This document shows, in pieces, positions 2,207 to 2,343 of a stretch of DNA of 64,000 nt. Origin of the DNA: a virus (lineage: Duplodnaviria; Caudoviricetes); the IMG/VR virus record IMGVR_UViG_3300050161_000042, positions 1 to 64,000 of that record; one strand, given 5' to 3'. The position numbers and the translations under genes were made by a program. Numbering within the stretch: position 1 is the first letter of the stretch; the number at the start of each line of letters is the position of its first letter. The notes beneath the pieces are model-generated. The model did not search any database. It worked only from the letters and a program-made list of their open reading frames with translations, and had not been told where the DNA came from.

Positions 2207-2343
2207 TACCAAAGGCGGGAGTCGAACCCGCAATTCGATGACAACTAAAGCGTTAGGGAAAGCCATCATCTTATCCAATTATAGGGGAACGGCTCCTCCT
2301 ACAGATTCGAGTGCTACTTTGAGCCAACCGGAATCACCTTGGC
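2207..2343 (-). ncRNA. tRNA-shaped 137-nt RNA with expanded core
   Basis: Acceptor GCCAAGG/CTTTGGT plus discriminator A; canonical T-arm GCGGG-TTCGACT-CCCGC; 5' end lies just downstream of the 2353-2381 promoter; no canonical 7-nt anticodon loop. Confidence 0.6.

Follow-up and report, generated by a model that had tools for sequence, protein, structure and literature searches.

A predicted tRNA-like RNA gene, preceded by a consensus promoter, in a large environmental phage: similarity in build to T4 species 1 RNA

The species 1 and 2 RNAs of bacteriophage T4 have been known for about fifty years. Neither has an assigned function (PMC3014915, PMC9697503; for species 1 also PMC12685909), and the tRNA-like candidates gathered from viral contigs in a large catalogue have not been assigned functions either (PMC10690425). 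In T4, two small stable RNAs adjoin the tRNA-Arg gene. Species 1 RNA (rnaC; AF158101, 70908–71046) is 139 nt long, has the T-arm CCGGG-UUCGAAU-CCCGG, with the 3′ strand of a stem that closes its ends directly after it and then an A, and carries a 10-bp hairpin that abuts the T-arm on its 5′ side, around a non-tRNA core with no anticodon loop. Canonical tRNAs measure 70–95 nt. tmRNA has a tRNA-like domain with acceptor stem and T-arm and without an anticodon, and is recognized by a G3-U70 pair, a tag-peptide frame, pseudoknots and a length of 260–400 nt (or two pieces). Bacterial and phage Y RNAs of the YrlA type (RF02553) provide a phage-encoded tRNA mimic of about the size considered here; YrlA reportedly ends in a Ro60-binding stem and has its tRNA-like domain rotated.

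We analysed a 64-kb window, the whole stretch of 64,000 nt under study, from an 88.5-kb IMG/VR virus record (G000; ~53% complete). The terminase of this phage is 60–70% identical to those of a large environmental phage group with complete genomes of 173–176 kb; like T4, which is virulent, the window phage is large and carries tRNA genes. Judged by its sequence and its relatives, 2207–2343 is a conserved gene for an RNA, and a consensus promoter of its own precedes it. It lies on the minus strand, with its 5′ end at 2343 and its 3′ end at 2207 (137 nt; Table 1), in a promoter-dense island ~4 kb from the nearest tRNA gene. The promoter is of the sigma-70 type, matches the consensus at 12/12 positions, is TG-extended and has 9 nt between its −10 hexamer and G1, with a predicted start 2–3 nt upstream of G1; the initial annotation had placed the 5′ end about 3 nt after the predicted start, and this agrees. 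Given the T-arm, we estimated a chance of ~0.6% that a 7-mer pairing with the 3′ strand would lie within ~10 nt of the predicted start, and because this value is low the joint occurrence is not attributed to chance. The T-arm motif GGGTTCRANNCCC occurs once in the 64-kb window, in this RNA, and a looser T-arm pattern has 5 matches against a shuffle mean of 1.65. A match to the combined acceptor and T-arm pattern at 12785–12885 was rejected as chance (unstructured, z +0.24).

Table 1 Positions of the tRNA-like RNA, its parts, its neighbours and its homologues. Positions are those of the window unless a contig or the RNA is named.
Feature	Position	Strand	Detail
Promoter	2353-2381	-	TTGACA (2381-2376), 17-nt spacer with TG, TATAAT (2358-2353)
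Acceptor stem, 5′ strand GCCAAGG	2337-2343	-	RNA 1-7
Arm 1, D-arm position	2304-2335	-	RNA 9-40; 5 + 3 + 3 bp, hexaloop
Arm 2, anticodon-arm position	2280-2303	-	RNA 41-64; 6-bp base UGUAGG/CCUAUA
Junction AUUG	RNA 65-68	-	from the MFE fold
Arm 3, variable-arm position	2232-2275	-	RNA 69-112; 3-bp base GAU/AUU
T-arm GCGGG-UUCGACU-CCCGC	2215-2231	-	RNA 113-129; 5 bp, 7-nt loop
Acceptor stem, 3′ strand CUUUGGU, and discriminator A (2207)	2207-2214	-	RNA 130-136, A137
3′ trailer and leader of the next gene	2091-2206	-	contains box CCCUGAUGGCCCCCAGGCC (~2160-2182)
Downstream gene	1707-2090	-	127 aa, Lys/Ala-rich N-terminus
Homologue	L175:1946-2083		138 nt; 92% identity to window
Homologue	L171:2245-2380 (= L172)		136 nt; 95% identity to window
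Homologue	L173:1578-1703		126 nt; 85% identity to window

Standard finders did not accept the RNA as a canonical tRNA. ARAGORN at default thresholds, including its intron and tmRNA modes, made no call at 2207–2343, and with lowered thresholds it returned only poor, mutually conflicting calls there; its calls in the window are tRNA-Arg (6184–6258) and tRNA-Glu (9658–9730), both on the minus strand and both with A rather than U at T-loop position 54 (GGAUCG...). Rfam gave no match at gathering scores, and the tRNA model RF00005 gave none even at E up to 10, a level at which the sole related match was the tmRNA model to the 17-nt T-arm (10 bits). The sole ORF across the RNA has 43 codons, begins at an AUG in arm 3 and spans arm 3 and the T-arm; indels in homologues break it, so we regard the RNA as non-coding.

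In its minimum-free-energy (MFE) fold, at −43.6 kcal/mol and with a z of only −1.7, the RNA forms a cloverleaf of five helices that has class II tRNA topology. Its ends pair in a 7-bp acceptor stem with two G-U pairs, G1-U136 and G6-U131 (G1-U72 and G6-U67 in tRNA numbering); A137 stands in the discriminator position (A73), the next base is C, and CCA is not encoded. The 7-bp acceptor stem, the discriminator and the 5-bp T-stem with a UUCRANY loop are those of a canonical tRNA, and acceptor stem and T-arm together enclose ~105 nt. The original description of a tRNA mimic, with a canonical acceptor and T-arm around a ~100-nt non-tRNA core, is thus borne out in its seven acceptor pairs, its A73 and its T-arm GCGGG-UUCGACU-CCCGC, all of which the homologues keep. 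In the MFE fold, arm 2 consists of 6 bp, a bulged A, 3 bp and a 5-nt loop that is not anticodon-like, and arm 3 extends beyond its base as a 10-bp helix with a 14-nt pyrimidine-rich loop. That helix is the GAUGAUGGC/GUUGUCAUC pairing proposed in the initial annotation. The GGCUC/GAGCC helix proposed beside it does not stand: it is absent from both the MFE fold and the RNAalifold consensus, in which the local arms at RNA 9–40 and 41–64 form instead, and GAGCC is missing in the homologue L173, which removes the helix there. The RNA was also said to lack a 7-nt anticodon loop, and indeed it has no 5-bp stem that bears a 7-nt loop with U33 and a purine at position 37. The candidate decoding loops are those of arm 2 (5 nt, and 8–10 nt in homologues) and arm 3 (14 nt), neither of which is conserved. 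With no anticodon-type loop, and with stand-in loops that differ between close relatives, the suggestion of a decoy for anticodon nucleases or T-box sensors is not supported.

Homologues were reached through the downstream protein: an HMMER search with it led to the contigs of its relatives, to which we applied a single-sequence covariance model of the window RNA (R1; R3 denotes a four-sequence model). The three homologues come from other metagenomes and share one gene order, namely a DUF932 gene, small ORFs, the RNA and a gene of 124–127 aa. Their promoter hexamers, the 17-nt spacing of these and the 9-nt distance to G1 are identical to those of the window. Pattern scans of viral, metagenome and genome collections with the T-arm/acceptor end, a neighbouring conserved 22-mer and arm 1 found no true homologue, and matches in a 19-mer scan were set aside as chance, being inside coding genes and without a covariance-model match. 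BLAST of the RNA against phage records gave no match, and a DNA search of five related phage records gave the 17-nt T-arm as its sole match. A protein-based search that started from a spurious plus-strand ORF was likewise empty. When public assemblies were searched with 1700–2700, aquatic and freshwater contigs matched 2061–2572 at ~95% identity with different flanks.

RNAalifold on an independent MAFFT alignment returned five helices identical to those of the MFE fold, and 98% of cells pair in the model-fitted alignment versus 36–46% with partners slid by 1–3 columns. Wherever a single base has changed in the acceptor stem or at the base of an arm, pairing is retained: A4 becomes G in two homologues and forms G-U with U133, U131 becomes C in all three and turns G6-U into G6-C, and G42-U63 becomes A-U in L171. 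Pairing is likewise retained in a single stem change from G74-C to G-U. Two pairs have changed on both sides, one of them from A-U to C-G in arm 3 of L173. Covariation is thin, at these two double changes, because the homologues are close relatives, and shuffles reached its score in 85 of 500 cases. The acceptor stem, arm 1 and the T-arm are conserved, and so are arms 2 and 3 at their bases; the T-arm is invariant, as are 11/11 pairs of arm 1, in which the three differences of L173 all fall at unpaired positions. L171 has a shortened distal part of arm 2, and L173 has another sequence in its place; the distal part of arm 3 has loop indels in the variants and is likewise replaced in L173. Because the distal loops of both arms are replaced or carry indels, none of them is taken to read codons. 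At 85–95% identity, the RNA is not conserved above the level of the DUF932 gene, a conserved gene that flanks it (85–90% at the nucleotide level), and part of the intergenic DNA is conserved to an equal degree; protein identity of the adjacent 127-aa gene, at 49–56%, is far below the conservation of the RNA.

The five helices of the RNA (acceptor stem, D-position arm, anticodon-position arm, long extra arm and T-arm) are those of a class II tRNA, from which it differs in its length of 137 nt, in having no 5-bp/7-nt anticodon arm and in a D-position arm of 11 bp without a free GG loop. Among tRNAs, the best matches of the window covariance models often were tRNA-Leu: tRNA-Leu(UAA) of the related phage G003 is the top tRNA in its cluster (26 bits with R1, 23.6 with R3), tRNA-Leu is also the top tRNA of the T4 cluster, and in the G001 cluster tRNA-Ser(gga) and tRNA-Leu(tag) are near-equal at 19.0 and 18.1 bits. 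tRNA-Leu thus ranks first in two of three tRNA clusters and is among the best non-self matches, as is a 143-nt tRNA-like element in L109 (21.8 bits with R3). The scores are weak (18–26 bits), with tRNA-Ile and tRNA-Ser scoring nearly as high as tRNA-Leu. Like the RNA, tRNA-Leu(UAA) of G003 has GCC.../...GGU-A ends, U8, G9, A73 and G1-U72. The G1-U72 pair occurs in 10 of the 17 ARAGORN tRNAs of G000, G001 and G003, including both window tRNAs; 16 of the 17, the two window tRNAs among them, are followed by C and none by CCA, and the tRNA-like RNA is likewise followed by C and not by CCA. These likenesses suggest that the RNA descends from a class II tRNA, probably tRNA-Leu, although the low covariance-model scores mean that we infer this descent rather than assert it.

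By its modelled build (~140 nt, a canonical T-arm, a closing stem and no anticodon), the RNA is of the rnaC kind, and T4 species 1 RNA is the closest known analogue by likeness of parts. Arm 3 abuts the T-arm as the 10-bp hairpin does in rnaC, and the lengths are 137 and 139 nt. The end stem of rnaC is imperfect in its MFE fold, unlike that of the window RNA, and rnaC is processed from a tRNA cluster precursor and classed as late, whereas the window RNA has its own consensus promoter. The models align only the T-arm/acceptor part of rnaC (R1 15 bits, R3 E 0.89), so that we liken the RNA to rnaC in build and do not file it in the rnaC family. A separate multibranch RNA with a 10-bp closing stem lies at 5865–5991 (minus strand; z −3.2), just downstream of tRNA-Arg, a position that recalls T4, in which rnaD and rnaC directly follow tRNA-Arg.

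The other described classes fit less well. That the RNA lacks both the G3-U70 pair and the length of tmRNA had been noted at the outset and holds, the RNA having C3-G70, and therefore no G3-U70, at 137 nt; it also has no tag reading frame, ARAGORN's tmRNA mode was empty and no SmpB gene was found, and we rejected a tmRNA on these grounds. A check against bacterial Y RNAs, proposed with the initial annotation, came out negative: Rfam gave no match, no TROVE/Ro60 gene (PF05731) was found in G000 (~53% complete) or in the four relatives G001, G002, G003 and G005, and the topology differs, with the ends of the RNA forming the acceptor stem itself. An intron-containing tRNA was discarded as well, since ARAGORN's intron mode at default thresholds found nothing, Rfam gave no intron match and the excess length is distributed over three arms. 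The proposal of a new class of tRNA-like non-coding RNA is too strong: T4 rnaC has the same build, and tRNA-like candidates have been catalogued (PMC10690425).

A search for an intrinsic terminator in the stretch that separates the RNA from the next gene (2091–2206) was negative. The 3′ trailer is 99% identical in L175 and 78–83% identical in L171 and L173. Just downstream of the RNA is a box, CCCUGAU(G/A)GCCCC...AGGCC(C)AG, that also stands at cassette boundaries in related phages; its sites are 2160–2182 (−) and 10759–10770 (−) in the window, which makes two matches where 0.18 were expected, L176:2090–2130, and two copies in L178. The 127-aa protein encoded next has no Pfam or PHROG family and no relative in viral contigs or in a word-indexed protein search, and it evolves fast, with 49–56% identity in phages whose DUF932 protein is 91–92% identical. 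Its gene is probably co-transcribed with the RNA. Gene content indicates that the two are not obligatorily linked: the more distant L176 and L178 have the downstream gene without an upstream RNA, and in L173 two other ORFs stand between the RNA and the homologue of the 127-aa gene. We therefore regard the RNA as an accessory module that is not tied to one downstream gene. Among the sequencing runs listed as containing this stretch, none is recorded as RNA. A 250-nt contig from a wastewater run (X10; library recorded as RNA-Seq, its kind being a guess) matches 2148–2198 and 2372–2509, with 59 unrelated letters in place of 2199–2371, the segment that holds the tRNA-like gene and the −10 region.

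On the other side of the promoter, 2417–2572 holds a TG-extended promoter-like site (2417–2444, plus strand; 11/12) that points away from the tRNA-like gene and a terminator-like hairpin (2554–2572), one of paired CTGCCA...TGGCAG palindromes. The interval of ~125 nt is ~95–97% conserved in other metagenomes. A plus-strand RNA at 2451–2585 was considered and rejected, its fold being no better than those of shuffles (z −0.95).

We favour, at a probability of about one half, the reading that the phage has here an accessory gene in its own right, whose product is a small stable RNA derived from a class II tRNA, most likely tRNA-Leu, that has lost decoding and is matured by tRNA-processing enzymes. 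The main rival, ahead of a decaying pseudogene, is a role in cis as a processing or stabilizing leader, with the element serving as a 5′ module of an early mRNA, either an RNase P/RNase E-Z cutting signal or a 5′ stabilizer, and the released RNA functionless, as in tRNA punctuation and t-elements. The RNA does stand after a promoter and ahead of another gene, no terminator was found, the 3′ trailer is partly conserved, and processing needs only the acceptor/T-arm half, which is the invariant part. A cutting signal has no need, however, of arm 1 or of the bases of arms 2 and 3, which are nevertheless conserved; moreover, the downstream gene differs between homologues, as the two other ORFs of L173 illustrate, and L176 and L178 have it without the RNA. 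We consider such a leader unlikely. Decay of a tRNA-Leu gene through accumulated insertions, perhaps with transcription persisting, is less probable still. It would account for the missing anticodon loop, the variable distal arms with their indels, the one relative in which the whole element is replaced and a level of conservation not above the local background, but four lineages, between which the neighbouring gene is down to ~50% protein identity, all retain the exactly spaced consensus promoter, the perfect T-arm and 11/11 arm 1 pairs, stem changes retain pairing, and related phages hold several unrelated enlarged tRNA-like RNAs. The initial annotation had set a decayed ordinary tRNA without conserved core pairing against its own proposal; the homologues have an invariant arm 1 and conserved bases of arms 2 and 3.

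Two further readings carry little weight. A non-canonical decoder or suppressor tRNA, which would use the loop of arm 3 (with CUAAC in three variants) or that of arm 2, is already largely refuted and very improbable: the covariance model places arm 3 opposite the anticodon arm of tRNA-Leu(UAA) and YCUAAC recurs in the window, L171 and run X8, but the loop has 14–17 nt on a 10-bp stem and varies in length by indels, L175 has CCAAAC and L173 an unrelated sequence, and neither ARAGORN nor Rfam calls a tRNA. The element could also be a phage attachment site (attP), since such sites often contain a copy of a tRNA's T-arm and 3′ acceptor strand; the copied part would then be the 3′ part of the tRNA gene of a host, and the 5′ strand would pair by chance. 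That reading is barely credible here, given that no tyrosine integrase (PF00589) was found in five records, including the source record and three complete relatives, that the 5′ half is conserved like the 3′ half and that the element keeps a fixed distance from a consensus promoter. An antisense regulator of phage genes was also rejected (the phage record has 7 complementary 11-mers where shuffles average 5, and it has no complementary 13-mer), as was pairing of the arm 3 loop with the purine-rich AGGAGG in arm 2 or with the next gene's ribosome-binding site, for which a by-eye comparison of the variants showed no co-variation; in L175 the arm 3 loop has changed and that ribosome-binding site has not.

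On the favoured reading of a separate tRNA-Leu-derived RNA, host sigma-70 RNA polymerase would start ~2–3 nt before G1 at the consensus promoter. RNase P, 3′ trimming enzymes and the CCA-adding enzyme recognize a 12-bp acceptor/T-arm stack, and because the transcript carries such a stack it would be cut free and CCA-tailed: RNase P and 3′ nucleases would trim it to G1...A137, releasing it from the downstream mRNA, and the CCA-adding enzyme would extend the A137 end with CCA to give a product of ~137–140 nt. In the related phage G001, a PF01743 nucleotidyltransferase is encoded beside the tRNA cluster. Since there is no anticodon loop and the distal loops vary among close relatives, the RNA would act through its conserved tRNA body, that is, the acceptor end with A73, the T-arm and arm 1. 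Most likely it would occupy, or be used by, a protein that recognizes tRNAs without reading the anticodon, such as a synthetase, for example LeuRS, an enzyme that modifies or damages tRNAs, or one of the phage's own proteins; a similar mode of action is presumed for T4 species 1 RNA. LeuRS is not known to read the anticodon, and it would be the obvious candidate partner for a tRNA-Leu-derived acceptor end with A73. In a more specific and improbable version, the RNA would be a chargeable or CCA-bearing scaffold whose body is seen by LeuRS or by a tRNA-targeting defence enzyme of the host that acts on acceptor ends, with the two exchangeable distal arms as specificity modules.

Other enlarged tRNA-like RNAs occur in related phages. 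L143:3686–3818 (+) and L146:2452–2582 (+) form a separate family of 131–133 nt. Its members start with GGGGC, have a 7-bp acceptor stem and a canonical T-arm around a structured core that is conserved, and differ from each other by 9 compensatory pairs; neither locus was matched by Rfam or called by ARAGORN. A model of this family (R2) had no match to the window RNA, nor did the window models match L143 or L146, so the two families are not demonstrably related. The 143-nt element of L109 (1552–1694, minus strand; G005) has a z of −4.0 and a 6-bp arm with a 4-nt loop at the anticodon position, and a 151-nt element at L155:7180–7330 (+; G001), within the tRNA cluster between tRNA-Arg and tRNA-Lys, has a canonical-looking D-arm; ARAGORN called neither. 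In G003, a 174-kb phage, ARAGORN found a permuted two-piece-type tmRNA with the tag AKPSFALAA (L163:13593–14022, +), and no SmpB gene was found in that genome.

By itself, the window RNA is one more unexplained phage tRNA mimic. It exposes a gap in what tRNA finders and Rfam can recognize, and it offers a compact, promoter-equipped example whose natural variants show a conserved body and free distal loops. If the scaffold version were true, the several unrelated tRNA-like RNAs of 126–151 nt in this phage group and T4 rnaC would make up one functional class of early anti-defence or translation-rewiring RNA. On any reading, the window RNA shows a build like that of rnaC arising independently in an unrelated group of ~170-kb environmental phages. 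This group has several such RNAs of different sequence beside its tRNA and tmRNA genes, which suggests that tRNA bodies without a decoding role are a tool to which phages turn repeatedly and no oddity of T4.
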